A stretch of 64,000 nucleotides of DNA from Candidatus Omnitrophota bacterium. Lineage in GTDB: Bacteria; Omnitrophota; Gorgyraeia; Gygaellales; Profunditerraquicolaceae. Position numbers and translations under genes: made by a program. Every line of letters starts with the position of its first letter. Positions within the stretch are counted from its first letter, which is position 1. The notes under the pieces were generated by a model. The model did not search any database. It had not been told where the DNA came from and saw only the letters and a program-made list of their open reading frames with translations. Below, piece after piece: positions 4,136 through 60,631 of this stretch. The stretch is from assembly GCA_028716965.1 (NCBI GenBank), contig JAQUOV010000002.1, positions 2,113-66,112 of the forward strand, given 5' to 3'.

Positions 4136-4137
4136 CG

Positions 4138-5739: not shown

Positions 5740-5757
5740 CGCCTATAGAACTTAAAG

Positions 5758-6783: not shown

Positions 6784-6807
6784 TGCCGATAAGCCTTGTT
6801 TTAATTT

Positions 6808-9223: not shown

Positions 9224-9229
9224 ATATCC

Positions 9230-10207: not shown

Positions 10208-10210
10208 GGG

Positions 10211-12225: not shown

Positions 12226-12231
12226 CTTTCT

Positions 12232-13206: not shown

Positions 13207-13207
13207 G

Positions 13208-14290: not shown

Positions 14291-14300
14291 AACTATTGGC

Positions 14301-15338
14301 CTAAAAAGTGGGCTTATTCAACACAGGTTTATCTTTAAAAGGTAACTCATCTTCATAGAAACAATTAATCATAATATGACAATTTTTCTTACAACCATAT
14401 ACCTCTTTTCTTGTTTCTTGTGTTTTAACTGAATCCCACAATACAGCAAGATTATCGGTTTTAATATTCCCGATCCCCTCAGTCAAACAACAAAAGAAAA
14501 TCTTTCCATATGGATCTACGTGAAATTCATAATCGCCGAGATTACATTTTATTTTCTTTAGAAATATGTTCGGTTCAGCAAAATATTCATTAAAATGCAG
14601 GAAATGATTTTGATGGTTTCCAATTTTATATCCGCTAGCCTTCATTTTTTTTAAGCATCTCATAACTTTTGAAACTTTCTTCAAATCGTCGGGCCAAAGG
14701 AATCTGTTTTTGTCGTTCTTAAACCAGTCCCTATCCATCTCTTGGCAAAAAGGCTGCGTTACTGCCTGAAAGCTGATCATCTCTATTTTTCTGTTTCTTT
14801 GTGTCCATTTCGCAAGCTTTAAGATCTCATTCAGGTTAGTTTTCATTATTGTCGTAAGGATCGCTATCTTTAATTTACTGCCCTTGCGATACTTGTCTAA
14901 ATACTCTATGGCCTTGATTATCCTTCTAAAGCTACCCTTTACTCCTCTTATAAAATCGTGCGTTTGCGACCGTATACCATCCAACGATAAAGTGAGAGTA
15001 CCCAACTTTGAGTTAACGATCTCCTTTGCCATTAGTTCATCTATAAGGAAGCCATTAGTCACTATATTTGTCCTGTAACCTTCTCCTGAAATAAAATTAA
15101 CCAGCTCCAATACCCCCTCAGACATCAACGGTTCTCCTCCCGACAAATGAAACTCAAAATCCGTATCAACGAAGCCACGCAGAGATCGCACAAAATTCTT
15201 TTTTTGCTGCATAGTAGTCTGTGTATTATAATCATCCTTTATATTCCAGATATTGCACATCTTGCATCTAAACATGCAGCGGTAATTAATCACCCAGCAG
15301 CAAAAACGGGGCTTAAGTAGAGGATTATAGCTATCCAT
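14301..15338 (-). CDS. Radical SAM/SPASM-domain protein, tandem-array paralog
   Basis: CMFRCKMC, SGGEPLMSEG, and C-terminal CNLGDYEF...FCCLTEGIGNIKT...CKKNCHIMINCFY. Confidence 0.75.
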   Translation of the reverse strand: MDSYNPLLKPRFCCWVINYRCMFRCKMCNIWNIKDDYNTQTTMQQKKNFVRSLRGFVDTDFEFHLSGGEPLMSEGVLELVNFISGEGYRTNIVTNGFLIDELMAKEIVNSKLGTLTLSLDGIRSQTHDFIRGVKGSFRRIIKAIEYLDKYRKGSKLKIAILTTIMKTNLNEILKLAKWTQRNRKIEMISFQAVTQPFCQEMDRDWFKNDKNRFLWPDDLKKVSKVMRCLKKMKASGYKIGNHQNHFLHFNEYFAEPNIFLKKIKCNLGDYEFHVDPYGKIFFCCLTEGIGNIKTDNLAVLWDSVKTQETRKEVYGCKKNCHIMINCFYEDELPFKDKPVLNKPTF

Positions 15339-15348
15339 AATTTAAAAT

Positions 15349-16347
15349 TCAGGTTGAATATAGAGACTGGTCGTCTTCTATATAACAACAATTGAGCAAT
15401 AAGTGGCAATTTGTTTTACAGTCATTTACTTTATTCCTAATGGCCGCAGCATCCTGTGAATACCATAACTCCCTGATATCGTTATCTCTTATATTGCCGA
15501 TAAAATCTTTAAAAAGACAGAGCTGTATAAAACCATATGCATTAACGCTTATCGCTTTGCCGCCTACAATACACTTGGCTCTATTGACAAACTTCTGAGG
15601 ATTGTTAAAGTAGGCTTTGTAAGCCCTTAAATGCTCAACCCGATTACTTATCTTTGAACCGTTTTGCTTTCGCCTTATCAATTCCTCAATAACAGAAAGT
15701 ACTTTGTTTTTATCTTTCGGCCAAAGATATTGGTATTCATCCTGCCAGTTATCCGTTAAGGGCCCACTGTAGTTAGGTTGAACAACTACCATAAAATACA
15801 GCCAATCAACTAAATCATTTTCTTCAGCCCACCCGGTCAAAGTAAGCAAATCCTCAATATTCTCATTCATGATGATGCAGCAAATTCCTTTCTTCGTATT
15901 ACGGGAGTACCTGCTTAAGTTATCTAAAGCTTCCATGAGGCGCTGATAAACACCGCTTTTACCCCGGATCCTATCGTGTACTTCCGGACGAAAACTATCA
16001 AGAGAGAGGCTTATCGCATCAAGACCGGAATTGCCGATTTTTTTTGCCATTTCCTTATCGATAAGATATCCGTTTGAGGCTACCGTAGTTCTGAATCCTT
16101 TTTGTTTAGCAAATTTTATTAAATCCAAAATCCCGGGCATAGAAAGCGCCTCGCCTCCCCCAAAATCCAATTCAAAATCTTTATCAACTAATTCACGGAA
16201 TCCGCTGATAAAATTCTTCCATTCTTCCAACGAAGGCAACTCTTCTTTTTTCGGAAGGGGCTCCTGCCATTTATTACACATTTTACAGCGCAACATGCAA
16301 AAATCAGTAGCTGCAATACAGCAAAATTTAGGTTTTATATCATTCAT
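15349..16347 (-). CDS. Radical SAM/SPASM-domain protein, tandem-array paralog (start moved to the internal ATG)
   Basis: CMLRCKMC, GGGEALSMPG, and C-terminal CIVGGK...LCLFKDFIGNIRD...CKTNCHLLLNCCY. The track start at 16440 would overlap the upstream gene by 83 bp. The ATG at M32 (16347) is preceded by AAGGAG and gives the N-terminal length seen in the paralogs. Confidence 0.7.
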   Translation of the reverse strand: MNDIKPKFCCIAATDFCMLRCKMCNKWQEPLPKKEELPSLEEWKNFISGFRELVDKDFELDFGGGEALSMPGILDLIKFAKQKGFRTTVASNGYLIDKEMAKKIGNSGLDAISLSLDSFRPEVHDRIRGKSGVYQRLMEALDNLSRYSRNTKKGICCIIMNENIEDLLTLTGWAEENDLVDWLYFMVVVQPNYSGPLTDNWQDEYQYLWPKDKNKVLSVIEELIRRKQNGSKISNRVEHLRAYKAYFNNPQKFVNRAKCIVGGKAISVNAYGFIQLCLFKDFIGNIRDNDIRELWYSQDAAAIRNKVNDCKTNCHLLLNCCYIEDDQSLYST

Positions 16348-16357
16348 ACATATCTCC

Positions 16358-17401
16358 TTATTTAGTGATAAAAGGATAATCCCCTTCAAAAAAGCAATTA
16401 AGTAAAAAGTGGCAATTATCCTGACATTTTCTGATATCATTTCTGGCTAGCTCTGCTTTTTCAGAATGCCAAATTCTCCCTATATCGTCACCGTTCTTGA
16501 TATTTCCTAAAAGCGCATATCGAAAGCACAAAAATATATCCCCTATCGAACTAACGTGTATTGCCCGGTCCAGATTGCAGGGATTCTTCTTGACGAACCG
16601 GGAAGGGTTATTAAAATAAGCCTTGAATGCTTCCAACTGCTCTACAGAGTTTCCTATCCAGTGCCCTAATTTTCTGCGTCTTATTAACTCATCAATAATT
16701 TCATTGGTTTTTTTAAGATCCTTGGGCCAAAAATAATCATATTTATTTTTATACCACTCTTCGTCAAATTCCGTATTATTCGGTTGCATTGCTGCCATAA
16801 ATAAAATAGAGTTAGTCATATCTCTGTTGCTATTCACCCATTCCGCTAAATGCAGCAGTCCACCAACGGTCTGCTCCATGATAATACTGCAAATTCCCAC
16901 ATGGATAGTCTTTGAATAATGTCTGATATATTTAATGGCATTCAATACCCGCTGCGCGACACCCTCTACCCCCCGCATAGAGTCATGAATTTCCGGCAGA
17001 AGGCTGTCCAGCGACAGGATAATACTGTCTAAGCCTGAATTCACTATTTTTTGGGCCATTTTCTCATCAATAAGGAAACCATTTGAAGCAATAGTAGTCT
17101 TAAAACCTAAGCTTTTAGAATAAGAAATTAATTCAAAGATATCCTCTTTCATTAAGGCTTCCCCGCCGCCGAAATCAATTTCAAACCCTGGGTCAACCAC
17201 ATCCCTTAATTGCTTAATAAATCTCTTCCATTCTTCGGTAGCAGGCTGGGGGATTCCCATCGTTCCGGCATCTTCCTTCCATTTCTGGCACATTTGACAT
17301 TTTAACATGCAACTGTCCACAATACCGATACAACAAAAACCTGGTTTTGCAATTTCCGGTTTTACGCTTGCGCTCTTATTCTTTTCTAACATATCATCCA
17401 T
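16358..17401 (-). CDS. Radical SAM/SPASM-domain protein, tandem-array paralog
   Basis: CMLKCQMC, GGGEALMKED, and C-terminal CNLDRA...LCFRYALLGNIKN...CQDNCHFLLNCFF. Confidence 0.75.
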   Translation of the reverse strand: MDDMLEKNKSASVKPEIAKPGFCCIGIVDSCMLKCQMCQKWKEDAGTMGIPQPATEEWKRFIKQLRDVVDPGFEIDFGGGEALMKEDIFELISYSKSLGFKTTIASNGFLIDEKMAQKIVNSGLDSIILSLDSLLPEIHDSMRGVEGVAQRVLNAIKYIRHYSKTIHVGICSIIMEQTVGGLLHLAEWVNSNRDMTNSILFMAAMQPNNTEFDEEWYKNKYDYFWPKDLKKTNEIIDELIRRRKLGHWIGNSVEQLEAFKAYFNNPSRFVKKNPCNLDRAIHVSSIGDIFLCFRYALLGNIKNGDDIGRIWHSEKAELARNDIRKCQDNCHFLLNCFFEGDYPFITK

Positions 17402-17423
17402 AACTTTTCCTTTATTTAAATTT

Positions 17424-18455
17424 CTATTCTATGGTAAAGGGGTAATCGCCCTTGAAATAGCAATTAAGCAAGAAATGGCAATTGTTTTTGCAATTTCCAA
17501 TATCCTCTCGGACTTGCGCCGCATTATCAGAACTCCAAAGTTGCGCGATATCATCCGTTTTAATATTCCCTAATTTTCCCCAATGATAGCAGAGGAATAT
17601 GTCGCCGCAGGAACTGATGTGCAATGCAGAGCCCATATTGCATTTTGTGGATTTCACAAAACGTTCAGGAAATTGATAGTATAATTTGAACGCCTCCAGC
17701 TGACAAACCTGATTCGTTATTTTAGAGTTATTTTTCTTTAGTTTTATAAGTTCATCTATAACCACGCATGCCCTTAGGGGGTCTTTCGGCCAAAGGCAAT
17801 CAAACTCTTCTTTTAAGTACCATTGTGCATCTAAAACTGTATTATTCGGCTGCATTGCTGCCATAAAATATACTGAATTCAATCTTTTATCGTTATCTAC
17901 CCATTCTGCAAGCTTAACTACATCTTCAATGTTTTTATCATATATCACAGAACATATTCCTTTATAAAGCTCACTGCAGGATTTATCCAGGGAACTTATG
18001 GCGCCCATTACTGCCCTATACACACCCTTGACTCCTCTTAAATAATCATGCGTGTCTTCTTGCAAGCTATCTAAGGATAAAATAATACTATCCAATCTTG
18101 AATCGGAGATTTTTTTTACAGTATTTTCGTCAATCAGATAACCGTTCGTTGCGATATTAACGTCCAACCTCTTCGATTTGCAAAAACTTACAAGTTCCCA
18201 AAGCCCCTCCTTCAATAGCGGCTCACCTCCGCCGAAATTTATTTGGATTGGCTTATCGGTTATCTTCTTTAAAGAATTCACGCAACGCTTCCAATCTTCC
18301 AGCGTAGGAGCACCTGTCCTATCTTTAATAAAAATGTCTTCCTTCCATTTCCGGCACATCTTGCATTTCAAAATACAATCATCTATAATGCCAAAACATA
18401 TAAAATCGGGCTTCACTTTCTGCTTTTCCCTTTTTCTAGAAATAATGGTTTTCAT
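17424..18455 (-). CDS. Radical SAM/SPASM-domain protein, tandem-array paralog (first gene of the array)
   Basis: CILKCKMC, GGGEPLLKEG, and C-terminal CNMGSA...LCYHWGKLGNIKT...CKNNCHFLLNCYF. A 167-bp non-coding region lies upstream (18456-18622). Confidence 0.75.
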   Translation of the reverse strand: MKTIISRKREKQKVKPDFICFGIIDDCILKCKMCRKWKEDIFIKDRTGAPTLEDWKRCVNSLKKITDKPIQINFGGGEPLLKEGLWELVSFCKSKRLDVNIATNGYLIDENTVKKISDSRLDSIILSLDSLQEDTHDYLRGVKGVYRAVMGAISSLDKSCSELYKGICSVIYDKNIEDVVKLAEWVDNDKRLNSVYFMAAMQPNNTVLDAQWYLKEEFDCLWPKDPLRACVVIDELIKLKKNNSKITNQVCQLEAFKLYYQFPERFVKSTKCNMGSALHISSCGDIFLCYHWGKLGNIKTDDIAQLWSSDNAAQVREDIGNCKNNCHFLLNCYFKGDYPFTIE

Positions 18456-18622
18456 TATCTACTGAATTTTCTCCAATCTATTCCCTTGCTTATGCATATA
18501 TTACGCCACGCTATATATTTAAACCCTCGCTTAAGCGCGTAGAAAAAACCGCCTGTTTTATTATGCTTCATGAATTTCTGCCAGAGTGTTTCTGCCATAT
18601 TCTGCCTCCTTTATCAAACCGT

Positions 18623-19852
18623 TCAGGTTGCTCTTACGGTTTTCAGAAAATGCGCAACCTCTCCAAGGATATGTTTCTTGAACCTGCCCAGCTTTACAAT
18701 CTTTTTGTGCATCTCCATCGTATGCCCAATATTATCACAACTCTTGTAACAACCCATAGTTACATCGGGATCATTGCCTATAAGAGAAAAAAGATTACCG
18801 GTTTTTTTAACCTTTGAGGTCTTTTCTCTAAAATACTGCTGCAACGCGCTATTCCAAATTTTACTGAATTTATCTTTATGAATATTGCCAACGGGAAAAC
18901 GGTGTGACTTAAGGCATGAATTTACGCTACCATCAGCCAATACCCTAACAAATGCCCATCCCACATAACAAGGCAATTTATCAATTATATCTGAATCGTA
19001 ATGTGCTGATTTTGCATCGGCATTCTCAACTCTACGGATAAATTGTTCGAAATTTAATATATTTGTTTTTTCTCTATTCATCCCAAATCCATATGCCAGT
19101 TTTAATTTCTTACATCGTTGCAATAAGTCGTACCTGTCTTTTTCACTTAGAAGCAACGTATCGGTCTTACCGGGTATAGTATCTATAACAGTAAACTCTA
19201 TTGATTCGGAGTTTGTTAAATCCCTGAGTTCCATCATATGCTCTATATCATGGTAGTTCAAATTAAAAATAACGTTATAGAGCTTTACTATTGGATATTT
19301 CTTCTTTTCCCTGTTTAAAAATACAAGCATTTCTTTTATCTTGTTGAAAGTCTTTTCATTTTTATTCGGATGTACAAGAGCGTATATACCCGCAGAACCT
19401 GCCCAGACACTGACAGTAAGATGATCGATTTTTAAATGAGTAAGTTTCTTTACTATCTTCTCATCCACTAAAGTAAAATTAGTATTTACATAACAAGTAA
19501 ACCCCTTTTTTTTAGTATAAGCAAGAATATCCATAATCTGGGGGTGCATAAATGGTTCTCCCCCACCGGCATAATAAATACTGGTTGTGCCCATACTGCA
19601 CAATTCATCCAACAACCCGATAATCTTTCCAAAGGGGATAGTTTGCCTTTTTGTCTCCGGTAATATTTTCTTTTCTCCCAAGAGAGGCGAATTACACCAA
19701 CACCCTATACAATCATTATTGCAATTATTGGTAAGGTCTATCTGAACAACATTTGGACCTTTATAGGCAAACGTACCATCTAAGATCCCTACAATATCTA
19801 AATAATCTGCGAAAATCTTTTTAAAATTTAAATAGCGCATATAATTTATCAA
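18623..19852 (-). CDS. Radical SAM/SPASM-domain protein from a different subfamily than the array
   Basis: NCNNDCIGCW (CxxxCxxC) and C-terminal CYVGWAF...SCLKSHRFPVGNI...CYKSCDNIGH. The track start is a TTG; the first ATG is at 19840. Confidence 0.6.
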   Translation of the reverse strand: MINYMRYLNFKKIFADYLDIVGILDGTFAYKGPNVVQIDLTNNCNNDCIGCWCNSPLLGEKKILPETKRQTIPFGKIIGLLDELCSMGTTSIYYAGGGEPFMHPQIMDILAYTKKKGFTCYVNTNFTLVDEKIVKKLTHLKIDHLTVSVWAGSAGIYALVHPNKNEKTFNKIKEMLVFLNREKKKYPIVKLYNVIFNLNYHDIEHMMELRDLTNSESIEFTVIDTIPGKTDTLLLSEKDRYDLLQRCKKLKLAYGFGMNREKTNILNFEQFIRRVENADAKSAHYDSDIIDKLPCYVGWAFVRVLADGSVNSCLKSHRFPVGNIHKDKFSKIWNSALQQYFREKTSKVKKTGNLFSLIGNDPDVTMGCYKSCDNIGHTMEMHKKIVKLGRFKKHILGEVAHFLKTVRAT

Positions 19853-19919: not shown

Positions 19920-22103
19920 TCATTTGTAATGGGCGAGTTTACGTTTTCTAAAATCTTCTTCAACTATTTTGATTTTGACAGAAAATAAATTATTTTGGTT
20001 AAAAGAACTTTTGCCATTAAGGAACCTGCTTTTTACCTCAAGTACCCTGCCTCCGAGCTTAGTTTCGGAATTTTTTATCGCGGGGGCATATTCGCCTTTT
20101 AATCCCGATACATCCAACAGGCAAGTCGGCAGCTGTCCTTTTATTTTTTTCCGACCTCTTAATCCTATAAAAGGCGTATAAGGATTCTTAAGCTCAACTC
20201 GCGTCGTCTGGCCGCCCGGATCAAATCTCCCTTCTCCCCAAGAATCTATCCAAGTATGATACCGGGTTGACAAAATAAGCATCGTTTTGCTTACAAAAGC
20301 CTTTGTCCCATTTTTTAAAGCAACTTCTATATCCCAATCAATCTGTTTTTCATCTAGTATTTTTATCTTCCATACCTCATCCAGGAACTTATTATTTCTT
20401 CTTAATAATAATTCTGAATCACTCAATTTTTGGCAATCCCAATACCCTTGAGCCGGTTCTATCCTCTCCCCGTTGTCAAATTCAAAACAATTTGCAAATC
20501 CCCTGCCTCGCGTTAACTTCCTCCCTTCCCAGAATAAACTTAAATTTCCGTTTTCAAAAAGCAACGACAGCCTGCCAACATTTAATCCGCTAATTTTAAC
20601 CTGGGAAGCAAGATTCCTTTTACGCCATACACCTTCTTGAGATAAAACAAAAACCGTTCGAATCAAAAACCGGATAATCTTAACAGCAGTAATCAATAAG
20701 CCATGTTTTTTAAGATTCTTTTTCAATAGTAAAAAATACCCTGATTTCTTCGGGGCCCTTTTTGCACAATGCAAAGCCCATTCTTTATATGCGTATCGAA
20801 TAGCAAATGCCAAATTTTTTTCCGACAGCCGAGGATATGTTATTACACTTTTATTGTTTCCATCATATTCTGCCAGATCATCTGAAATTATATATCCGCT
20901 TTCCTTCATCTCCTTAAAAAATACCGTACCTGGAAACGGCGTAGCTATAGAAAACTGGATCGTAGCAGGGTCAAGCCTAAGCGCTAACTCTACCGTTTTA
21001 TAAATACTCTCTTTCGTTTCTCCAGGCAACCCGAAAGTAAAAGTCAAATGACTTTTAATACCCAGCATTTTAGTGAGCCTGATTATTTCTTCTGTTTTCT
21101 TGAGATTCATATTCTTGCCTGCCTTATCGATAAGTTCTTGACTTGCAGATTCTACACCATATTTTATTGCATACAAACCTGCCTGGCGCATTGCAACTAA
21201 AATTTCTTCATCCATCAAATCTGCTCTCGCCATTATCCCCCAGGGCACATTCAACGAACGTCTTTTAATCTCATCACATAGGCTAAACATCCTTTCCCTG
21301 CCGCAATTAAAAGTATCATCGTCAAAATATACGGATTTAAAATGCATCTTTTTTACTAAATACTCCATTTCATCAACGATATCTTTTACGTCCCTAGTTC
21401 TATACTGGTTACTTTGGTACATAACCTGCGGCCAAAGGCAAAATTTACATCTATATGGACAGCCGCGGCTGGCAAGCATCTGTACTGAAGGAAGGGGCAT
21501 ATCTCCCGGTGTATCATTATATCTTTCCATAGGTAATCCTTCACGCAATGGCCAAGGCATCTTATTTAAATCAACCAACGCACGCAAAGAAGTTATTCTG
21601 ATACCTCCCGCATCACGGTAAATAAGCCCTGCGACATCATTTAAGCTATTATTTGCTTTTAAGTTAGTGACTAAATCCAAAAGCGTAAATTCATACTCGC
21701 CTACAAGCACATACTTAATGAAAGGGTACTTTTTAAGGAAGGCTGGCTGTCTTATGGTAATGTCCGGACCGCAAATTGCGATGGGAATATCCTTGCCGAT
21801 TTTTTCAAGTATCCCCATGTCATGGATCAGGCTTACCGTTGAGGTCTCGCATACTAAAAGCTGAGGATTTATTTTTCTTATCTGCCTGAAGAAAGTACCA
21901 TAACTCTTTTTCTCTGCAATCGCATCTACTAACTCAACGTCAAAGTTGTTTTGCTTAAGGAGTGCAGCCGCATACGCTAAAAAGAAAGGAAAAGGCAGGT
22001 AATCTTTTTCAGTTGGTCCTTTTAAATGCGGCCAGCGCGAGCCAGCTCTTACCCCTGTTTTTCCAAAGCTTTTCCAGGGTAAATTAGCAAGAATTATTTT
22101 CAT
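19920..22103 (-). CDS. B12-binding radical SAM protein with a C-terminal extension of about 220 aa homologous to the Wzt C-terminal repeat
   Basis: CPYRCKFC at about residue 214 after a B12-binding-like N-terminus. The C-terminal segment LSLLFENGNLSLFWEGRKL...VWKIKILDEKQIDWDIEV...YHTWID aligns with repeat C of ORF 25303-28125 (LFWEGVEL...QWEIALLNEKTIQWNIRQ...YREW). Confidence 0.7.
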   Translation of the reverse strand: MKIILANLPWKSFGKTGVRAGSRWPHLKGPTEKDYLPFPFFLAYAAALLKQNNFDVELVDAIAEKKSYGTFFRQIRKINPQLLVCETSTVSLIHDMGILEKIGKDIPIAICGPDITIRQPAFLKKYPFIKYVLVGEYEFTLLDLVTNLKANNSLNDVAGLIYRDAGGIRITSLRALVDLNKMPWPLREGLPMERYNDTPGDMPLPSVQMLASRGCPYRCKFCLWPQVMYQSNQYRTRDVKDIVDEMEYLVKKMHFKSVYFDDDTFNCGRERMFSLCDEIKRRSLNVPWGIMARADLMDEEILVAMRQAGLYAIKYGVESASQELIDKAGKNMNLKKTEEIIRLTKMLGIKSHLTFTFGLPGETKESIYKTVELALRLDPATIQFSIATPFPGTVFFKEMKESGYIISDDLAEYDGNNKSVITYPRLSEKNLAFAIRYAYKEWALHCAKRAPKKSGYFLLLKKNLKKHGLLITAVKIIRFLIRTVFVLSQEGVWRKRNLASQVKISGLNVGRLSLLFENGNLSLFWEGRKLTRGRGFANCFEFDNGERIEPAQGYWDCQKLSDSELLLRRNNKFLDEVWKIKILDEKQIDWDIEVALKNGTKAFVSKTMLILSTRYHTWIDSWGEGRFDPGGQTTRVELKNPYTPFIGLRGRKKIKGQLPTCLLDVSGLKGEYAPAIKNSETKLGGRVLEVKSRFLNGKSSFNQNNLFSVKIKIVEEDFRKRKLAHYK

Positions 22104-22107
22104 ATAG

Positions 22108-25100
22108 CTATAATTTCAATAAAAATTTACTTAAACTATATTTATCCATTAATTCATTTATTCTAAAAATTACCTGGTGAGTATCGCAATGCTTACAAAA
22201 CTCATCATATAACTTAATCCCATTGGCAAGTGTGGCCTCTTTATTCTCTGCGATGTATTTAGCCTGGATCCTTATCTTGTTATACTCTCCAGAATTCCAT
22301 ATCTCTTTAAAACATTTTCCGTTTATGCTGTCAATAATACGCAGATGGCAACAAATACTTACATCTCCTTTTGCTAAAATGAGGCTAAAAAACCAGCCCA
22401 CGGGACAACCAAGCCTAAAAGGCAGCTCTTCTGACCAATCTCCTGTTGTTGGATTATAATTCTCAAGTTGAAACTTTATATTATTCTGCAATTCTATATC
22501 CTCTTTCTTCAGGAACTGTTCAACATCCTTTAAAGACTTTCTTAAGAAACTAATATGCTCAGCTTCCAATTGAAGGGACTTAATATTTTTGTCTAAGCGC
22601 GCCAGATAAAACCTGGTTTTGTCCGCACCTATAAGCGCATCAATCTTTGCCATTTCTCCTAACTCATGATAATTTAAATTATGGATAACGTGTGTCATCT
22701 GCAGAAGCGGTTTATTTTTGCCGGACTTCTCTCTTAGATGCATTAGATGCTTTAAATTATTAACGACTTTATGAAATGTTTCTTTTGTACGAGATGAATT
22801 AATCCGTGCGTATGTCTCTTCCGTCCCAGCAGGAAGGCTGCAGAAAATCTCATTTATTTCCAGATCTACTATTTTCTTAGCTTTTTCTTCATCCAAAAGG
22901 ATGGCGTTTGTAAAAAATAACACCTTTAAACCTTTATCTCTGGCATAGCCGGCCATTTCAAAAAACCTATCATCTAAAAGCGGCTCTCCATCACCCTGGA
23001 ATATGATTTCATCACATAAAAGCTCGACTGCGTTATCCACTATTCCTTTAAATAATTCAAAATCCATCTTTGCTTTTACTCCTGGAACAGAAAGTTTGCG
23101 AACCGGTGTATGTATCCAGCAGTGGATGCAGTTTGTATTACATTTATGAAATGTATCGATCACTATCGTCTGAGGGCCGATAAAAGGATGCTCTACAATC
23201 ACCCCTAAAAGCCTTATTAGATCTTTCTCATTATACTGATCTGCCTGGGAAGACACAGTATGCAATAACTGCGGCAAGTCTTGGTCTTTTAAGAAAAAAC
23301 TAATGTTATCGGTTTGAATGCGCAGCTGAAGTTCTTTTACATACTCAATGAAGTTTGTATAAAGCTTTTTCACCGGGAAAATATCCAAAGTAACGCACCG
23401 CAAGTCTACCCGCTGATTAATGAGATTTGAATAAAATTGAGCAATTTCATTCAATCTAAAAAAGTTGTATTTTGATATACCGATTTTTATACTTATCCTC
23501 CTCTGAAACGGAAGCTTTAGTTTCGAAATGACTTTTTCAAAATCCCCTGTGGTCCCGCTTATCCTGTCGTGGATAATCTGGCTATCTCCAAACACAAAAA
23601 CTTCATTATCTTCAACTGTATGTGTTTTTAAGGAATCCAACTCCAGATTTTCTGCTAGCTGGAATACATCGGAACTCTTGACAAGTCTGCGATTAAACCT
23701 ATTCATTACGCGTTCCAAAACGGATACATCTTTATAAAACTTGATAGATATTTTAAAATTAGGATAAACTCCCGGATGAATCAATTCTTTTTTCTCTTCA
23801 TGAGCGGCAGTAAGGACTCGCGAACTCACTATGGCATCAGAATTTTGAATGGTTAAGACGTCATCTTTTCCGATATGGCGCACATACAATAATATGGAAG
23901 GAAAATCTTTCAAATGTGAGGTTAAGCCTATAAAAAACGGTTTTCTCTGGATGAGGTGGATGTCTTTAAATTCTGGAGAAAAGGCAGGGAAACCGCCCAT
24001 TTTTGCACGGGAAAACCAATCGTTATACCCCTTGCTTAAAAACAAGGAGGCATTGCTTTGATCTATGCGCAAAGAATCTCGCACCTGTATACTTTCCTCC
24101 CATAATAAATTGTTATCTTTTAAAACTAAATGCCATCGGTAGGTGATAGGAAGATGTTTATGGGTTAAATGCGCGACTAATTCCTGAGAAGACAAATTAT
24201 CTATCTGCGCTTCTGAATCTGAAGAACCAAACCAACGCCCCTCTGAAAGTATGCGCGTATAAAGCCCCCACCATTTAGTAATCTCAGATCCATTATTGTA
24301 TATATGAACACGGTTTTCTTCATCAATGTATATTTTAAGATTGCTATTTTGGAGAGTACGATTTCTTTTCTCCTGGGCCTTGCGTTCCTCCTGCCTTTTC
24401 CTCTCCTCCTCCGCTAGTTCCTCCTGCCTTTTCCTCTCCTCCTCCGCTAGTTCCTCCTGCCTTTTCCTCTCCTCCTCCGCTAGTTCCTCCTGCCTTTTCC
24501 TCTCCTCCTCCTGCTGTAAAAAAATACCTCTTTCGTAACTCTCCCTGATTTCTTGCAATTTATCTTCCAGTATAATCTTATCCGGATAGAATTCTATTAT
24601 TGCTTTAAAATAACGGTATGTTCCGCTGCTATATATTTCTTCTTTTTCCTCAAGTTGCATCTTAAGCACGCGGGCTGAAAAACGCTCGTCGGTATTCTGA
24701 ATCGCCAGCTCCGTATTTGGACCACCATCGTTCTTAAGGGTAATACTCGGAAAATCTTGGGATGAAGAAATTACTCCAATAAAGTCGGGGTTATTTTCTG
24801 ATAACACTATATTCGTCCACTCTTTAGTAAATTCCGTTTGAAAATTATCCTGCGCTAAAGGAACAGTCCATTCCTGATAATTCTTTGATAAAAATAAAGC
24901 CGCATTTCTTCTATCAACCCGTAATGAATCTTTTAGCTGGATGTGCACATCCCAGGAAATTATATTCTGGGGCATTAGTACAAGGTGCCAGACTTGAATA
25001 AGCGGAAGAGGCGTAAAATTAAAATAAATAAAAAACTCCCCTTGCGATACCTTTTCTATCTTGAGGCTGCAATCTGAAGAACTATACCATTTTCCGTCAG

Positions 25101-25299
25101 AAAATATCCCCGTGCTTAAGCCAAACCATTTGGTAATTTCGTTATCTTTATAATAAATCCTGAATCTGTTTTCTTCATCAATCCAAAGCCTTAATCCTTC
25201 CTGGGAGATCGTGCGAGAATTCATCTGTTTTTGAATCTGCGTTTTTCTATACCCCTTTAGCTTCCTTTTAATAGCTGCCATTAAACTTAACATATACAC
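22108..25299 (-). CDS. Giant multidomain radical SAM protein: two N-terminal Wzt-C-like repeats split by an (EEERKRQEELA)n charged linker, then an rSAM/SPASM catalytic region
   Basis: CNTNCIHCW at about residue 715 with a C-terminal Cys cluster. Residues about 34-250 and about 318-480 are internal repeats (WFGLSTGIFSDGKWY...PLPLIQVWHLVL...ISWDVHIQ against WWGLYTRILSEGRWF...HLPITYRWHLVL...LLWEESIQ). Both resemble the Wzt C-terminal repeats. The track start is a GTG; the first ATG is at 25293. Confidence 0.7.
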   Translation of the reverse strand: MYMLSLMAAIKRKLKGYRKTQIQKQMNSRTISQEGLRLWIDEENRFRIYYKDNEITKWFGLSTGIFSDGKWYSSSDCSLKIEKVSQGEFFIYFNFTPLPLIQVWHLVLMPQNIISWDVHIQLKDSLRVDRRNAALFLSKNYQEWTVPLAQDNFQTEFTKEWTNIVLSENNPDFIGVISSSQDFPSITLKNDGGPNTELAIQNTDERFSARVLKMQLEEKEEIYSSGTYRYFKAIIEFYPDKIILEDKLQEIRESYERGIFLQQEEERKRQEELAEEERKRQEELAEEERKRQEELAEEERKRQEERKAQEKRNRTLQNSNLKIYIDEENRVHIYNNGSEITKWWGLYTRILSEGRWFGSSDSEAQIDNLSSQELVAHLTHKHLPITYRWHLVLKDNNLLWEESIQVRDSLRIDQSNASLFLSKGYNDWFSRAKMGGFPAFSPEFKDIHLIQRKPFFIGLTSHLKDFPSILLYVRHIGKDDVLTIQNSDAIVSSRVLTAAHEEKKELIHPGVYPNFKISIKFYKDVSVLERVMNRFNRRLVKSSDVFQLAENLELDSLKTHTVEDNEVFVFGDSQIIHDRISGTTGDFEKVISKLKLPFQRRISIKIGISKYNFFRLNEIAQFYSNLINQRVDLRCVTLDIFPVKKLYTNFIEYVKELQLRIQTDNISFFLKDQDLPQLLHTVSSQADQYNEKDLIRLLGVIVEHPFIGPQTIVIDTFHKCNTNCIHCWIHTPVRKLSVPGVKAKMDFELFKGIVDNAVELLCDEIIFQGDGEPLLDDRFFEMAGYARDKGLKVLFFTNAILLDEEKAKKIVDLEINEIFCSLPAGTEETYARINSSRTKETFHKVVNNLKHLMHLREKSGKNKPLLQMTHVIHNLNYHELGEMAKIDALIGADKTRFYLARLDKNIKSLQLEAEHISFLRKSLKDVEQFLKKEDIELQNNIKFQLENYNPTTGDWSEELPFRLGCPVGWFFSLILAKGDVSICCHLRIIDSINGKCFKEIWNSGEYNKIRIQAKYIAENKEATLANGIKLYDEFCKHCDTHQVIFRINELMDKYSLSKFLLKL
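24385..24516 (-). repeat. Perfect 33-bp tandem repeat, 4 copies, in-frame within CDS 22108-25299. It encodes (EEERKRQEELA)4, an E/R/K-rich linker that probably forms a single alpha helix
   Basis: The plus-strand unit ttcctcctgccttttcctctcctcctccgctag is repeated head-to-tail from 24385; the last copy has a variant end. It translates on the minus strand to LAEEERKRQEE repeats. Confidence 0.8.
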
Positions 25300-25302
25300 C
25301 CC

Positions 25303-28125
25303 TTAATCTCCGACTGTTATCCTGCCACTGAAATAGAGTTTGTCGGCTTCCTGCTTTTCGAAACTGCTATTCAACATCAGTTCACATTGTAAAGCTCTTG
25401 CTTTAAAAAAACTATCAGTATTCTCAATCGCAAAGTAACGGGCTTGATGCCCATCATTGCAATCTAAAGTAATCGCAGGAAGGATCTGGCCATTGGATAC
25501 TGCCTCTCCGGTCCTGTCGCAATACACACCTATCGGCTTACTTGTATCGCCACACCATATCCTGTCCCAGAACATGCCATTATGTTCGATAAATTCATCT
25601 GAAAATGATCCTTTTATCTTATTGCGCACAGACCATTCCCTGTAGCTATCTGTGAGCATAAGATTAACCTGTCCTTTTTGCAAAATAAAATGCTCCCAAA
25701 TCTCCTGCCGTATATTCCATTGTATCGTCTTTTCGTTCAACAAAGCTATCTCCCACTGCTGTATAAGAGGGACCCATGGCCATCTGCTTACAACTACTAT
25801 CTTATTTTCTAACGACTCGTTTATCTGCCATAAAGCCTGGGTTGAATCACACCATATGTCTGAATATTGCACCGAAGTATAGAGCCCTAATTTCTTACTT
25901 AACTCTACCCCCTCCCAAAAAAGACGAATTTTACCATATTCAAAAACCAAAGACGTTCTTCCCCGTTCTAACTTGGCTAAAGCACACTTCTGCCGGCTGT
26001 CTATCATAATCTTATCGGTCTCTGCTGACGATGCTTCAAGCTCTTTTTCACCCGCGCCCACTCTTACCTCTCCCCCGAAATACTGGTATACTCCGGACTC
26101 CATATCGGGATCTTCTTGTTCGTCAACCTCTACAAAAAATAACCTCGTAATTAAATTATCATCTCTGGGTTGGGAAAGATAGGATACGTAAGGGACTGCT
26201 GCATTATGGCTAAATAAAACCTTTGGCAAGGCAACTTTACCGCTTTCATCCAACAACTCAACCCCGGTATATTTATTTATGTATTTATTAAGAATGGCTA
26301 ATTTCCCTTGTTTATCTTTCCCTTGAAAACTCCCCTTTTCATCCGGCGTTATCCAGTCTTTATACCGGCCGCTAAGCATAAGCTCTGTTTGTTTCTCTCT
26401 TATTTTTACTTTCCCGCTAATTTCCATCTTTACATTCCATGAAATTAGATTACCGCTTTTCAAGCTTAACTTCCAGACTTGGGACAATTGCGAAAGCATA
26501 TCCCAAGAAATAGCGATCGTAATCTCGTCCTTATTTTCCTTACGTATAATCCAATTCCCCTCCTGGGCGTTATATCTTTGATCATTGCATTTAAATCTTG
26601 TATTAAAACCTGTGGAATGCGTTATTAACTCATTATTAAAATATAATTCAACTTTTTTCTCATGGCAACGAAGGATAAGCGGCCCTTTACTTATTTCTGC
26701 CGATTCCTGCTTTACTGTTTTGGCATTCTCTATATAGGTTTTGAGAATTTTATCCTCGGCATCAAAAACAGTTATCTTAGAGAGAAAACAACGGCACTGC
26801 TCAAGTGAATCTTTGCCTGTCGAAGAGGGTAAAAGAGGCTGGAAATGGATTAACCTGGCTTCCAGATCAGCTCCAGTATTACCAACCCGGCAAATCGTCA
26901 CAAAATCATTTTGTAATCTTTCAAAAAGCAGGGTAGGCAATAAATCCTGCTTGTCCTTTTCTCCGGACAATCCAATAATTTTATTTGTCGTATCATCGAC
27001 TGTAATTAAGTCAAACCTGCTTTCGTGGATAAATGAAGGAGGAAAATCCATTTCTCTGCCCAAGGCAAACCACTTAGTAAACTCATTGCTGAACATCAGG
27101 TCTATTGTGCACTTTTTAATACTGCCTTTGGAAACTTTATCTAAAATTACTTCCCAAATAAATTCTTTTTCGCTTAATACAGTTATTTTCCAGCGCAAAG
27201 AAACAGGAAGGTCGGGCCATCTTCCTACGGCGTTAATTTCATTTTCCGCTCCACTGTCAGATACTTCCCAGCAGGCAGCAGCAGAAAGAAACTCTTTTCC
27301 CGATGAGATTAACCTGGAATGCCCTGCCGAATTAGGCGTTATAGTCTTTTCTTTCCATCTTAAAATAAGCTTACCATTGTTAAAAATAACGCCTAACTTG
27401 CCTTTCTGCGCAATAGCAATGCCTTTTTTATCGCCTATCGATTCAAGATAATAACTGCATACTTCTTCTATGGGGCCATCTTTAATCATTGAGCCTTCCC
27501 TGATAAGAATGCCCCGGGAGCATAACCGCTTTGCCATCTCTATATCATGAGTTACAAGTATGATAGTTTTACCTTTTTGCTTTAATTCAAACATCTTATT
27601 GATGCATTTTTTTTGAGCATACATATCGCCTACTGCAAGGATATCATCTACGAGCAAGACTTCCGGATCAATGTGTATTGCAATAGCAAATGCCAAACGC
27701 ATATACATGCCCTGAGAATAACTTTGTACAGGGGCATTGATGAATCTTCCTATGCCGGCAAAGTTTACTATATCGTTATACTTATCATCTGTCTGTTCTT
27801 TGGTAATGCCGAACAACGAAGAGATAAGATATATGTTCTCTCTTCCGGTAAGCTCTTTTTGAAAACCAGCCCCGATTTCCATAAGCACAGAAATCCTGCC
27901 CTGCACAGTTACGGCTCCCTTGTCCGGCTCCAACATACCGGCAATGATCTTTAATAGCGTAGTCTTACCCGCGCCGTTCTCCCCTAAGATAGCGGTACAT
28001 TCTCCTTTTTTTATGCTAAAGTGCATCCCTTTAAGCGCCCAAAAGTCTTCCCGGGATGTTTTCCCATTTATTTTAAATTCAACCCTATATTTTAACCAAA
28101 CGTCATTTAACGATACTGTTTCCAT
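25303..28125 (-). CDS. wzt: Wzt/TagH/KpsT-family ATP-binding subunit of a polysaccharide ABC exporter, with a C-terminal extension of about 700 aa holding three copies of a Trp-rich, presumed carbohydrate-binding domain
   Basis: Walker A GENGAGKTT, ABC signature YSQGMYMRL (the Wzt/TagH-type variant), and Walker B LLVDDILAVGD. It sits directly beside an ABC-2 permease. The C-terminus carries three mutually similar repeats of roughly 200 aa. Confidence 0.8.
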   Translation of the reverse strand: METVSLNDVWLKYRVEFKINGKTSREDFWALKGMHFSIKKGECTAILGENGAGKTTLLKIIAGMLEPDKGAVTVQGRISVLMEIGAGFQKELTGRENIYLISSLFGITKEQTDDKYNDIVNFAGIGRFINAPVQSYSQGMYMRLAFAIAIHIDPEVLLVDDILAVGDMYAQKKCINKMFELKQKGKTIILVTHDIEMAKRLCSRGILIREGSMIKDGPIEEVCSYYLESIGDKKGIAIAQKGKLGVIFNNGKLILRWKEKTITPNSAGHSRLISSGKEFLSAAACWEVSDSGAENEINAVGRWPDLPVSLRWKITVLSEKEFIWEVILDKVSKGSIKKCTIDLMFSNEFTKWFALGREMDFPPSFIHESRFDLITVDDTTNKIIGLSGEKDKQDLLPTLLFERLQNDFVTICRVGNTGADLEARLIHFQPLLPSSTGKDSLEQCRCFLSKITVFDAEDKILKTYIENAKTVKQESAEISKGPLILRCHEKKVELYFNNELITHSTGFNTRFKCNDQRYNAQEGNWIIRKENKDEITIAISWDMLSQLSQVWKLSLKSGNLISWNVKMEISGKVKIREKQTELMLSGRYKDWITPDEKGSFQGKDKQGKLAILNKYINKYTGVELLDESGKVALPKVLFSHNAAVPYVSYLSQPRDDNLITRLFFVEVDEQEDPDMESGVYQYFGGEVRVGAGEKELEASSAETDKIMIDSRQKCALAKLERGRTSLVFEYGKIRLFWEGVELSKKLGLYTSVQYSDIWCDSTQALWQINESLENKIVVVSRWPWVPLIQQWEIALLNEKTIQWNIRQEIWEHFILQKGQVNLMLTDSYREWSVRNKIKGSFSDEFIEHNGMFWDRIWCGDTSKPIGVYCDRTGEAVSNGQILPAITLDCNDGHQARYFAIENTDSFFKARALQCELMLNSSFEKQEADKLYFSGRITVGD

Positions 28126-28130
28126 GCGCT

Positions 28131-28913
28131 CTAAATATACTTTAAAATATCTGTCTCTCTCTTAATAAAAACATAATACCCGATGCTTATACTGATAAAG
28201 GAAGATACTGCAGCCAATACCCAGCAATACAATGAGCCGGGAGAACCACTATAAAGCAATGACCTGTATATAACCGCGAAACTTGAGGCGGGATTTAACC
28301 AGACAATCCAACGTAACCCTAAGGGGATTACCTCCGCGGAATAGAATATCGGCGTCATCCAAAACAGGAGCATTACTCCTATATTCAATAAATACGCTAA
28401 ATCCTTACAGTATACATTCACTATGCTAAATAGCAGACAGGCACCTAACGTAAAAATAAAATGCAGTAAAATTGCTGCCGGCAATAACCATATATATCTT
28501 AAAATATCCATATTAATTACGGCAAAAAACGGAAGAATAATGATAAAACCGAATAGGAAATTCATAAAGTTGGCGCAAACCACTGCTATTGGTATTATTT
28601 CCCGCACTATAATAAATTGATTTAATATCCCCTTGTTTTTTTCCATTGAGGTAGTGGATTCCGTCAAAGAATTCACAAAGAAAAAAAATGGCAGGAGCGC
28701 GCTTAAAACATAGGAAGGGAAGTTCTTTATTCCTGTTTTCATTAGATTCGTAAAGACAAAATTAATCGCGATCATCAGCAACAAAGGATTTATAATAGCC
28801 CAAAAATACCCTAAATGAGAACCGACGTATTTATCTCTAAGGTTTTTTCTCACCATGCCGGACAAAATTTGTCTTTGCGCCGATAATTTATTAAATCTCT
28901 TCTTTAAATACAT
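28131..28913 (-). CDS. wzm: ABC-2-type polysaccharide exporter permease (Wzm/TagG-like)
   Basis: 260 aa with 6 predicted TM helices. Its position 5-prime of the Wzt ATPase and its size are typical of Wzm. Confidence 0.7.
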   Translation of the reverse strand: MYLKKRFNKLSAQRQILSGMVRKNLRDKYVGSHLGYFWAIINPLLLMIAINFVFTNLMKTGIKNFPSYVLSALLPFFFFVNSLTESTTSMEKNKGILNQFIIVREIIPIAVVCANFMNFLFGFIIILPFFAVINMDILRYIWLLPAAILLHFIFTLGACLLFSIVNVYCKDLAYLLNIGVMLLFWMTPIFYSAEVIPLGLRWIVWLNPASSFAVIYRSLLYSGSPGSLYCWVLAAVSSFISISIGYYVFIKRETDILKYI

Positions 28914-29194: not shown

Positions 29195-30239
29195 CTTTAT
29201 ATATCACGACACTCGGATCAGCGCAAATTTTCCAATCAGAAAAAGTAAAGGAGCATATCTTTTCCATATATTTAATATTTTAATGCCTCGGTCCTTAAAT
29301 CCCAATAATAGTAAAAAGACTGGTACTATACAGGTTGATACTGATGGCCTATGGGTCATCTTTCAGCATTTTTGCCTTACATATGATCAAGAGAAAGATA
29401 TACTCTATGAATCGGCGATTCCCCGCTTCCTGGATTTATTTGATTACTATAATATTAAAGCCACATTCTTCGTGGTAGGCAAAGACCTCCTTTACCCTGA
29501 AAGGCTTCTCTTACTCAGAGAGGTGGTTAAGAGAGGCCATGAGATCGCCAACCACTCTATGACACATGCAGAAGGATTTTCATTTCTGCCCTATAAGAAG
29601 AAATTACGTGAAATAGTAGATGCCGAAACTATAATACAGGATAAGCTTGGTGTATTAACCAAGGGGTTTCGCACCCCATCTAACGACGTAGATAGTGATG
29701 TGCTGAATATCCTGGAAGACAGGGGCTACGCATATGATTCCTCAATCATGCCGACCTATTACGGACCGCTACTTAAACGCCTGAAATTTTCTTTTTTGGA
29801 AATTAATCATAAAAACCGTTATTTGGGTAGATTTATATATGGCCTGGCCCCGCTTGCACCATATCATCCACACAAAGAAAGATTATGGAAAAAAGGATGC
29901 ATGGGAATTATTGAGCTCCCTATTACCACTATGCCATGGCTACGCCTGCCTTTTCACGCCAGCTTTACGTTCGCGGCATATCAAATGGGCTTCGGCAGCG
30001 CCCTATTTGACCTGGGATACACACTGCTAAAGAAAACCTCCTGCCCCTTAAATTTTGTATTTCATACAAATGAACTTTCCGACCCCATATCAAACCGGAG
30101 GATTAAACGGCAATATGGACTTAATATTGCTTTAAATAAAAAATATGCACTATGTAACCATATGTTAAGCGTCATCAACAAGGATTATAAAATAATCACT
30201 TCCCTTGAATACACAAATCTATTGCAAAATAGTAAATGA
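29172..30239 (+). CDS. Polysaccharide deacetylase (CE4/NodB-homology domain)
   Basis: ATFFVVGKDL is the TFDDG-equivalent block and NHSMTHA is the H-S-x-x-H motif. The track start is a TTG; the real start may be the ATG at 29283 (M38), given the promoter-like hexamers at 29165-29194. Confidence 0.55.
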   Translation: MDAWRGIIFIYHDTRISANFPIRKSKGAYLFHIFNILMPRSLNPNNSKKTGTIQVDTDGLWVIFQHFCLTYDQEKDILYESAIPRFLDLFDYYNIKATFFVVGKDLLYPERLLLLREVVKRGHEIANHSMTHAEGFSFLPYKKKLREIVDAETIIQDKLGVLTKGFRTPSNDVDSDVLNILEDRGYAYDSSIMPTYYGPLLKRLKFSFLEINHKNRYLGRFIYGLAPLAPYHPHKERLWKKGCMGIIELPITTMPWLRLPFHASFTFAAYQMGFGSALFDLGYTLLKKTSCPLNFVFHTNELSDPISNRRIKRQYGLNIALNKKYALCNHMLSVINKDYKIITSLEYTNLLQNSK

Positions 30240-30964
30240 CAAATACAATGCTACCAATGGAAAATAAACAGGTATCCCTCATGTTCTCCGGTGGGCTGGA
30301 TTCAACGGCAGCCGCACTTAACCTTGCTCAAGAATACCATAAGGTCCACCTTCTAACGTATTATAACGGTTATGGCCATTTGTATATCAAAAACAGCGCC
30401 CGGCGGGCAGAAGAATTATCCAAAATGGTAAAAGATAAATTTACGCACAACATCATATCTATTGAAGAGCTCTTTAAGAAAATGGTTATTGATAAGCTTA
30501 CAGAAGATTACAAGGAATATAAATCTGGGTTCATCTGGTGCCTGGGATGTAAAATGTGCATGCATACCAGAAGTATCATCTATAACTTGGATAACAATAT
30601 TGGTCTCATGGCTGACGGCTCATCAGAAGACTCCGACGAAATGGTCGAGCAAACGGCTCTTAGTATTTCCTTAATCGCGATGCTCTATGAGGCATACAAG
30701 ATAAGTTATTTTGTTCCGGTTTACAAACGAACCCGTAAAGAAAAAATAAAGACCCTAAAAGCAATGAATTTTCGTATGGGCCTGCAAATCGGTGACAGGT
30801 TTTTAGGGATACAACCAAAATGTATCCCCGGCGAACTATATTATATGCCGTATCTTTTATTCAATAAAGCCATGAAACACGAAAAACCCTCAGTGGCTAA
30901 ATTCATCAAAGATAAGCATGGATTGGCCGAACAATATATTAAGGAGCATCTTAAGAATGGATAG
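30236..30964 (+). CDS. PP-loop superfamily ATP pyrophosphatase (QueC/ExsB-like adenylating enzyme)
   Basis: An N-terminal SGGLDST PP-loop motif (LMFSGGLDSTAAALNL) and a Cys cluster WCLGCKMCMH. 4-bp overlap with the deacetylase gene. Confidence 0.5.
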   Translation: MTNTMLPMENKQVSLMFSGGLDSTAAALNLAQEYHKVHLLTYYNGYGHLYIKNSARRAEELSKMVKDKFTHNIISIEELFKKMVIDKLTEDYKEYKSGFIWCLGCKMCMHTRSIIYNLDNNIGLMADGSSEDSDEMVEQTALSISLIAMLYEAYKISYFVPVYKRTRKEKIKTLKAMNFRMGLQIGDRFLGIQPKCIPGELYYMPYLLFNKAMKHEKPSVAKFIKDKHGLAEQYIKEHLKNG

Positions 30965-36033: not shown

Positions 36034-36036
36034 TTT

Positions 36037-53687: not shown

Positions 53688-53705
53688 ATTATTAATGTCA
53701 AGATT

Positions 53706-54749: not shown

Positions 54750-54765
54750 AAATTAACCCGCACAA

Positions 54766-55428: not shown

Positions 55429-55678
55429 AATCGGCTCCTTTAAAAAATAAGTTTCACTGTTTATCTAAAAACTTTGTGCCCATGCAAGTGCACCTGTATT
55501 CCTGAAACCTGTTCATCTTAACCTTTTACCGCGCTGTATATCATGATGAGACTTAAAAACTCTTACCTTTAGGTCAATAAGCAACTCCGCAATCCTGCAT
55601 AAAACATTTCTTTTTGTATTTTTAAGAAAAGATCTCCATAATTATATGTATCCGGGACAAATATCTGCACATCTTCCA

Positions 55679-57245: not shown

Positions 57246-57289
57246 CCTTGGGTACGATTATGTTTTTGTTTACTTCTTTAACTTTCCGG

Positions 57290-60619: not shown

Positions 60620-60631
60620 GGTCGGGTATTC

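Follow-up and report, generated by a model that had tools for sequence, protein, structure and literature searches.

Does a glycan-type ATP-binding cassette (ABC) exporter share a recognition module with the radical enzymes encoded beside it? We addressed this question in a stretch of 64,000 nucleotides (the window) from contig JAQUOV010000002.1 of a Candidatus Omnitrophota bacterium, in which a Wzt-like ATPase and two radical S-adenosylmethionine (rSAM) enzymes have in common a domain of about 215 residues that we named REP. Most of what is understood about ABC-transporter-dependent glycan export comes from Aquifex and a small number of proteobacterial systems, in which a single jelly-roll carbohydrate-binding domain (CBD) reads the terminal cap. 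We found that REP is a previously unannotated domain family, for which neither Pfam nor NCBIfam holds a matching entry. With a probability of roughly 0.55, REP serves the exporter and the radical enzymes in common as a module that recognises the substrate, most likely by binding glycan, in a surface-polymer pathway of Candidatus Omnitrophota that depends on an ABC transporter.

Six copies of one domain on three adjacent proteins

The three REP-bearing genes are co-directional on the minus strand and lie directly downstream of a Wzm-like permease gene. Their features are listed below with window positions, lengths in amino acids (aa) and, for most REP copies, envelopes from hidden Markov models (HMMs).

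28131-28913, minus: Wzm-like ABC-2 permease, 260 aa (Pfam ABC2_membrane, E 2.8e-12), directly upstream of the Wzt-like ATPase
25303-28125, minus: Wzt-like ATPase, 940 aa; its recognised domain is ABC_tran at aa 31-161 only
27430-28125, minus: Wzt-type nucleotide-binding domain (NBD), aa 1-232 of the ATPase (Pfam ABC_tran)
26749-27414, minus: REP copy Wzt-1, aa 238-459 (HMM envelope; tree clade wzt1)
26038-26703, minus: REP copy Wzt-2, aa 475-696 (HMM envelope; position in tree)
25309-25977, minus: REP copy Wzt-3, aa 717-939, at the C-terminal end of Wzt (HMM envelope)
22108-25299, minus: "giant" rSAM/SPASM enzyme, 1063 aa (Pfam Radical_SAM 717-884, SPASM 965-1038)
24574-25218, minus: REP copy giant-1, aa 28-242 of the giant enzyme (HMM envelope)
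24384-24511, minus: perfect 33-bp tandem repeat, 3.9 units, encoding a charged EERKRQEELAE linker (TRF, 100% matches)
23722-24363, minus: REP copy giant-2, aa 313-526 (Wzt-only HMM)
22111-23664, minus: catalytic part of the giant enzyme, consisting of a pre-domain, radical SAM and SPASM (Pfam; Cx3Cx2C motif at about aa 720)
19920-22103, minus: B12-binding rSAM (B12-rSAM), 727 aa (Pfam B12-binding and Radical_SAM)
20604-22103, minus: catalytic part of the B12-rSAM, aa 1-500 (Pfam; HpnJ-like, below the family cut-off)
19953-20591, minus: REP copy on the B12-rSAM C terminus, aa 505-717 (Wzt-only HMM; clade b12)
367-2082, minus: REP-less paralog of the giant catalytic part, 571 aa (BLASTP 44% identity, E 3e-153, to giant aa 564-1060)

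About 700 residues of the Wzt-like ATPase, 545 of the giant enzyme and 225 of the B12-rSAM have no Pfam or NCBIfam assignment, and it is exactly these parts that BLASTP aligned between the three proteins (20-27% identity over 120-500 aa, 38-82 bits). Alignment of the six segments with MAFFT gave a common unit of about 215 aa. We then scored jackknife HMMs at a nominal database size of 1e6. An HMM built from the three Wzt copies only matched giant-1 at 1.7e-25, giant-2 at 7e-14 and the B12-rSAM copy at 6.9e-18, and in the reciprocal direction HMMs from the rSAM copies recovered the Wzt copies. These results ruled out a chance or low-complexity origin of the similarity. With a 47-sequence HMM, the whole window in six-frame translation yielded six copies and no more, the next best E value being 0.67; this search excluded a seventh copy, including one in the 738-aa open reading frame (ORF) at 40112-42328.

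A first-pass annotation of this DNA had described a Trp-rich repeat of about 200 aa common to Wzt (three copies), the B12-rSAM (one) and the giant enzyme (two). All six copies were confirmed by BLASTP and jackknife HMMs, and the similarity of the three proteins was upheld on proper alignment by MAFFT and the same HMMs. The range that it gave, 19920-27400, is essentially correct, as the first Wzt copy begins at about 27414. The sequence motif that it proposed is real but spans only the N-terminal ~120 aa of the domain. Trp-rich is a fair label: tryptophan makes up 2.0-4.8% of REP and is the commonest residue at six positions (46, 54, 70, 79, 91 and 119 in giant-1 numbering, used throughout). 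Individual copies measure about 205-225 aa by their HMM envelopes. Across 202 copies the conserved residues are T31, S49, W54, Q77, W79, Y116, W119, F128, P159, N177, R185 and F206, and conserved polar residues comprise T31, S49, Q77, N177, D179 (64%) and R185.

REP behaves as an add-on module: the 44%-identical paralog of the giant catalytic part has no match to the REP HMM. The B12-rSAM matches NCBIfam HpnJ over aa 13-444 with 241 bits, the cut-off being 578. The EERKRQEELAE linker repeat separates the two REP copies of the giant enzyme and may be a spacer of variable length; the giant ortholog in a related locus (L001) is 8 aa shorter overall. An exact look-up found no sequence identical to the Wzt-like ATPase of the window.

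REP occupies the site of the canonical Wzt domain

The best NCBIfam matches of the NBD are TagH and galactan Wzt/RfbE, and its closest PDB sequence is Wzt of Aquifex aeolicus (8dku/7k2t, E 1.2e-64, query aa 18-242 only). By these matches the NBD is of genuine Wzt type. This Wzt/TagH-type NBD is encoded beside the ABC2_membrane gene at 28131-28913, the arrangement of a Wzm/Wzt-type (ABC-2) exporter, and Wzm-Wzt adjacency is repeated in 11 related loci. Query aa 242 (chain aa 252) is the last position aligned to A. aeolicus Wzt, and the Aquifex CBD linker starts there. REP-1 starts at about aa 238, immediately past the NBD hinge, at the site of the canonical CBD.

Membership of REP in the Wzt_C family was rejected by three results. 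Pfam Wzt_C (PF14524) gave no match to the three window proteins at E<=1 or to 47 REP sequences at E<=10; the positive control, an O9-family Wzt from E. coli HS, matched PF14524 at E 2.9e-25 over aa 283-423; and the REP profile, compared by hhalign with the O9 Wzt C terminus, gave a probability of 0.08%. The NBD alignment stops at the linker and no Wzt_C match is found; REP-1 thus holds the canonical CBD position without being homologous to that domain. The first-pass annotation had regarded REP as the C-terminal carbohydrate-binding module of characterised O-antigen exporters, recruited onto two radical enzymes. The sharing between the exporter and both rSAM enzymes is borne out, but the identity with the known Wzt module is contradicted by the absence of a PF14524 match, the profile comparison and a different predicted fold. 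It had also supposed that REP recognises the chain-terminating residue, for which this analysis gave no support: REP is not homologous to Wzt_C, and therefore cap recognition cannot be carried over by homology.

The Wzt CBD, a jelly roll of about 150 aa, forms dimers through exchange of C-terminal strands (PMC9445017); the predicted fold of REP is a different one. Like REP, the CBDs of E. coli O9a, Raoultella terrigena and A. aeolicus WzmWzt stand directly after the NBD hinge helix of an ABC-2 exporter, are all-beta, and have a presumed role in substrate recognition that licenses export (PMC9445017). Unlike them, REP is a predicted 215-aa galactose-mutarotase-like supersandwich with no sequence relationship to Wzt_C, is present in 2-8 tandem copies rather than one, and extends to rSAM enzymes, GT-C transferases and a sulfatase.

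Predicted fold

An AlphaFold2 model made from six sequences had a mean confidence (pLDDT) of 57 and a poor C-terminal half, and already pointed to galactose-mutarotase-like domains. The model of giant-1 from a 47-sequence alignment reached a pLDDT of 95.5 and a predicted template-modelling score (pTM) of 0.92, with 17 beta strands. Foldseek agreed on a galactose-mutarotase-like fold (E 1.4e-7, TM 0.72). REP is thus predicted to be an all-beta supersandwich, and the model places it by fold in the supersandwich superfamily. The expectation of a beta-sandwich in the first-pass annotation was upheld in this respect; the structural comparison that it had in mind came out otherwise, as Wzt CBDs are jelly rolls and the predicted fold of REP is not, and no Wzt CBD was among the Foldseek matches listed.

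The predicted fold is found overwhelmingly in carbohydrate-handling proteins. Domains of this kind include the N-terminal domain of a GH36-type galactosaminidase (9awt), GH38, GH97, lacZ domain 5, aldose 1-epimerases and OpgG. REP has no detectable sequence homology to those supersandwiches of carbohydrate-active enzymes, and the catalytic residues of the epimerases are not conserved. Searches of Pfam and NCBIfam found no homology to the families of the fold (Aldose_epim, MdoG, glycoside hydrolase accessory domains), and the REP profile had no match among PDB sequences at E<=10. The structural matches include YidC P1, the PBCV-1 capsid protein P19, chloroplast PnsB2, aldose 1-epimerases and OpgG/OpgD. 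REP is an accessory module, repeated on an ABC ATPase and on rSAM enzymes; none of the structural matches listed was seen in such a setting. The P1 domain of YidC, a protein insertase, is periplasmic, occurs singly and contacts proteins or peptides, whereas REP is mostly cytoplasmic, occurs in tandem and belongs to a glycan-type exporter.

Distribution and partner domains of REP

An exhaustive HMMER profile scan of 1.84 billion cluster representatives detected 603 REP-bearing representatives at E<=1e-3 and 504 at E<=1e-10. We annotated the architectures of the best 150 of the 603 (local annotation and Pfam), with the following counts.

87: Wzt-type NBD with 2-8 REPs (mode 3)
42: REP only, of which at least 12 are fragments without a start Met
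8: GT-C (PMT_2) glycosyltransferase with 2-4 C-terminal REPs
7: two to four REPs with rSAM/SPASM
2: B12-rSAM with REPs
2: NBD, REPs and rSAM/SPASM in one chain
1: B12-rSAM, REP, rSAM/SPASM and REP
1: sulfatase with REPs

Nine more REP proteins that had unexplained regions were scanned with Pfam, and no additional partner domain came to light. All partners come from families that include glycan-processing enzymes. The names in the source records are generic ("ABC transporter ATP-binding protein", "hypothetical protein", "radical SAM protein"), and the source organisms that are named, a handful, are all Candidatus Omnitrophota. A pattern scan of genomes, one per GTDB species, gave 11 loci, ten in metagenome-assembled genomes (MAGs) or single-amplified genomes of Omnitrophota and one in a MAG labelled Planctomycetales. 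Genome-derived REP proteins therefore come almost entirely from Candidatus Omnitrophota.

REP probably occurs outside the cytoplasm as well. By a simple hydropathy window, the sulfatase with REPs has an N-terminal signal-anchor, and most of the GT-C proteins with REPs have nine predicted transmembrane segments with the N terminus inside. In other metagenomes (L005-L007), the sulfatase-REP genes are clustered with genes for family 1 and family 2 glycosyltransferases (GT1, GT2) and CysD/CysN-like genes.

Conserved gene order and single-chain fusions

The REP genes belong to a conserved cassette that runs in the order Wzm, Wzt (NBD and three REPs), rSAM/SPASM enzyme with one to three N-terminal REPs, B12-rSAM with REP, rSAM/SPASM enzyme of about 410 aa, and tandem rSAM/SPASM paralogs of about 340 aa. 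This order is kept in four related loci (L001, L008, L013 and L015). A fifth (L011) has the same cassette genes, but three small rSAM/SPASM genes stand ahead of the REP-rSAM gene, and four shorter contigs stop within the REP-bearing gene after Wzt. The closest relative found, a 95-kb metagenome contig from the Joint Genome Institute (JGI), has the same gene order, which is also kept in Omnitrophota MAGs.

In three related Omnitrophota loci, parts of the exporter and of the radical enzymes are fused into one chain. These chains are an NBD with five REPs and rSAM/SPASM (1856 aa; L002:3489-9083, RKY36779.1), an NBD with two REPs and rSAM/SPASM (1217 aa; L003:2018-5686), and a 1915-aa ORF that joins an NBD, two REPs, B12-rSAM, REP and rSAM/SPASM (L018:6290-12034, in JAFGGP010000013.1 of an Omnitrophota MAG). 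Walker A and Cx3Cx2C are intact in all three. In a further locus the two rSAM enzymes are fused with each other as B12-rSAM, REP, rSAM/SPASM and REP (1403 aa; L016:6392-10624). Whatever REP binds, these fusions are the strongest evidence for physical cooperation between the exporter and the radical enzymes. The fusion of exporter, REP and rSAM parts into one chain suggests a physical coupling between export and the radical tailoring of one surface polymer. The first-pass annotation had proposed a physical coupling of this kind; that the exporter and the rSAM enzymes are functionally coupled is now strongly backed by conserved gene order and by the three independent NBD, REP and rSAM chains.

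In a neighbour-joining tree of 53 copies, built without bootstrap support, REP copies group by position as wzt1, wzt2, wzt3, b12 and giant, with one divergent Wzt copy from L017 also in the giant clade. These position-specific clades indicate that the duplications of REP and its recruitment onto rSAM enzymes predate the divergence of these lineages. Towards the closest ortholog, REPs are 68-77% identical and catalytic domains 86-90%, in parallel in all three proteins; in more distant orthologs the values are 35-52% for REPs and 60-69% for catalytic domains. Such faster evolution of REP would be expected of a specificity module.

Candidate roles of REP

We infer that the ligand is a glycan and that its binding is what couples tailoring to export. 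A glycan-recognition role is suggested because of the predicted fold, the position behind the NBD, the nature of the partner enzymes, the probable occurrence on both sides of the membrane and the glycan-biosynthetic content of the window. In the proposed mechanism, three tandem REPs would stand in for the canonical Wzt CBD behind the ATPase, while one to three REPs on the first rSAM/SPASM enzyme and one on the B12-rSAM, both encoded beside the transporter, would bind the same cytoplasmic, presumably lipid-linked polymer. Through this common polymer the exporter would stay on one substrate with the radical enzymes, and tailoring and export would thereby be coupled. In some lineages the coupling would be covalent, with NBD, REPs and rSAM enzymes in one chain.

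Several observations weigh against glycan recognition. Similarity of a predicted fold is not function, and the same fold has a protein-interaction or structural role in YidC P1, PBCV-1 P19 and PnsB2. Pfam and PDB profile searches found no sequence-level link to any characterised carbohydrate-binding family. A scaffold under loose constraint would account equally well for the faster evolution of REP. Of the 27 rSAM genes in the window only 2 bear REP, so that most tailoring enzymes do without it. The topology given above is a crude hydropathy count, in which some proteins have even numbers of transmembrane segments.

The main rival reading is that REP is a docking or oligomerisation module, whose heterotypic REP-REP contacts would assemble the rSAM enzymes as a metabolon on the cytoplasmic face of Wzm/Wzt with no direct glycan binding. 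We regard this as unlikely. The protein contacts made by this fold in YidC P1, P19 and PnsB2 are in its favour, as is the dimerisation of canonical Wzt CBDs (PMC9445017). The single-chain fusions of NBD, REP and rSAM are the Rosetta-stone expectation for interacting proteins, and the wzt1, wzt2, wzt3, giant and b12 clades that are kept across genomes fit fixed pairwise partners. Docking is harder to reconcile with REP on the C termini of GT-C proteins and on a signal-anchored sulfatase, which are probably extracytoplasmic, have no Wzm/Wzt within 12-15 kb and so lack a cytoplasmic docking partner; REP outside the cytoplasm fits polymer binding better than docking to a cytoplasmic protein. The range of 2 to 8 copies on Wzt is also hard to square with a fixed stoichiometric interface.

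It is rather improbable that REP binds something other than a sugar, such as the polyprenyl-diphosphate carrier, a lipid or a peptide, the last in the manner of peptide recognition for SPASM enzymes in the biosynthesis of ribosomally synthesised and post-translationally modified peptides (RiPPs). The thought arises because rSAM/SPASM enzymes are typically peptide maturases, several of which are among the best sub-threshold NCBIfam matches, and because YidC P1, which shares the fold, has peptide-like ligands. The B12-rSAM, being HpnJ-like, is moreover related to an enzyme that modifies a lipid-linked sugar. RiPP recognition elements (RREs, PqqD-like) resemble REP in that one recognition module is reused on several tailoring enzymes, including rSAM/SPASM; they differ in having a winged helix fold and a peptide ligand, and the analogy is one of mechanism only. 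No PqqD/RRE-like Pfam match was detected in the three REP proteins, and no precursor-peptide gene was noticed, small ORFs not having been searched. The exporter is of the Wzt/TagH polymer-export type, and the GT-C and sulfatase partners and the cluster content are oriented towards glycans, which also argues against a ligand of another kind.

That REP is itself catalytic, for example in mutarotase- or epimerase-like or OpgG/GH186-like glycan processing, is very improbable: enzymes on this fold (aldose 1-epimerases, OpgG/OpgD) are among the structural matches, but REP does not resemble the Aldose_epim or MdoG families in sequence, the His/His/Asp/Glu set of aldose 1-epimerases is not conserved by alignment column (no His or Glu column reaches 60% in 202 copies, and the sole acidic column above that level is D179), and 2-8 diverged tandem copies on five enzyme classes as hosts are typical of binding modules.

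A further-reaching reading is that the Omnitrophota exporter and rSAM enzymes form one physical machine organised by REP as a new substrate-reading family, in which the polymer would be modified at the cytoplasmic face of the transporter and export licensed by the modifications. We consider this possible, with odds somewhat short of even. The E. coli O9a system (WbdD terminator, WbdA polymerase and Wzt CBD) is similar in that export needs prior modification of the polymer and the biosynthetic enzymes are organised at the membrane beside the transporter. In contrast to the Omnitrophota arrangement, its tailoring enzyme lacks the binding domain of the transporter and is not fused to it, and the chemistry is that of a kinase/methyltransferase, not of radical SAM. 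If the Omnitrophota proteins do act as one machine, they would be the first case of an ABC exporter to which radical SAM chemistry is directly coupled, with a new kind of substrate licensing that does not involve Wzt_C.

A recognition domain behind the Wzt NBD and binding modules on carbohydrate enzymes are already known in general; genuinely new are the REP family, its sharing by an exporter and radical enzymes, and the fusions. Our literature searches found no description of REP, of a non-Wzt_C supersandwich on Wzt, or of fusions between ABC exporters and radical SAM enzymes, and in a 2026 survey of Omnitrophota genomes radical SAM figures solely as a Pfam module of giant proteins. Should REP bind the polymer, it would be a new carbohydrate-binding family, would give a concrete, testable model of how a polymeric substrate is found by dozens of radical SAM enzymes, and would offer an entry to the surface polymer, heavily tailored, of a phylum that is uncultured and largely dependent on hosts. 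Should REP instead be a docking scaffold, the fusions still show a direct association of exporter and rSAM enzymes, of which no description was found in the literature.

Other genes of the window

Apart from the REP-bearing pair, the 27 radical SAM genes of the window lie at 367-19852, 34630-38480, 45437-46852 and 52599-61717. Twelve tandem rSAM/SPASM paralogs of about 325-365 aa occupy 5758-18455, broken by one B12-rSAM (6808-8238); the window also holds several other B12-rSAMs and a 686-aa protein with two rSAM domains (2075-4135). Tandem arrays of rSAM/SPASM paralogs also follow the Wzt and REP genes in related Omnitrophota loci. Assignment of the rSAM enzymes of the window to any named NCBIfam system was rejected, as all matches are far below the cut-offs. 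Two of the rSAM/SPASM paralog ORFs (15349-16440 and 16358-17401, minus) overlap by 83 nt as listed, and the true start of the gene at 15349-16440 is probably further downstream than the first ATG.

Genes with a bearing on glycan biosynthesis encode two DegT aminotransferases, a GT2 glycosyltransferase, two GT-C proteins, YfhO, two carbamoyltransferases, a polysaccharide deacetylase, methyltransferases and a sulfatase. The sulfatase gene (43278-44687, minus) adjoins a TauE/SafE sulfite-exporter-like gene (42510-43262, minus). The chemistry of the polymer may include sulfation or desulfation, as hinted at by this pair in the window and by the clustering of REP-sulfatase genes with CysD/CysN-like genes elsewhere. 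The 738-aa ORF at 40112-42328 (minus), which has no Pfam or NCBIfam match and no REP, lies between a carbamoyltransferase gene and the TauE/SafE-like gene.

A small QueC/PP-loop ATPase-like protein of the DUF7411 family, with weak tRNA_Me_trans and QueC matches, is encoded at 30236-30964 (plus). Its gene is placed divergently beside the Wzm/Wzt operon, and a QueC-like gene is also present at L003:11391-12386, in the locus of the 1217-aa fusion.

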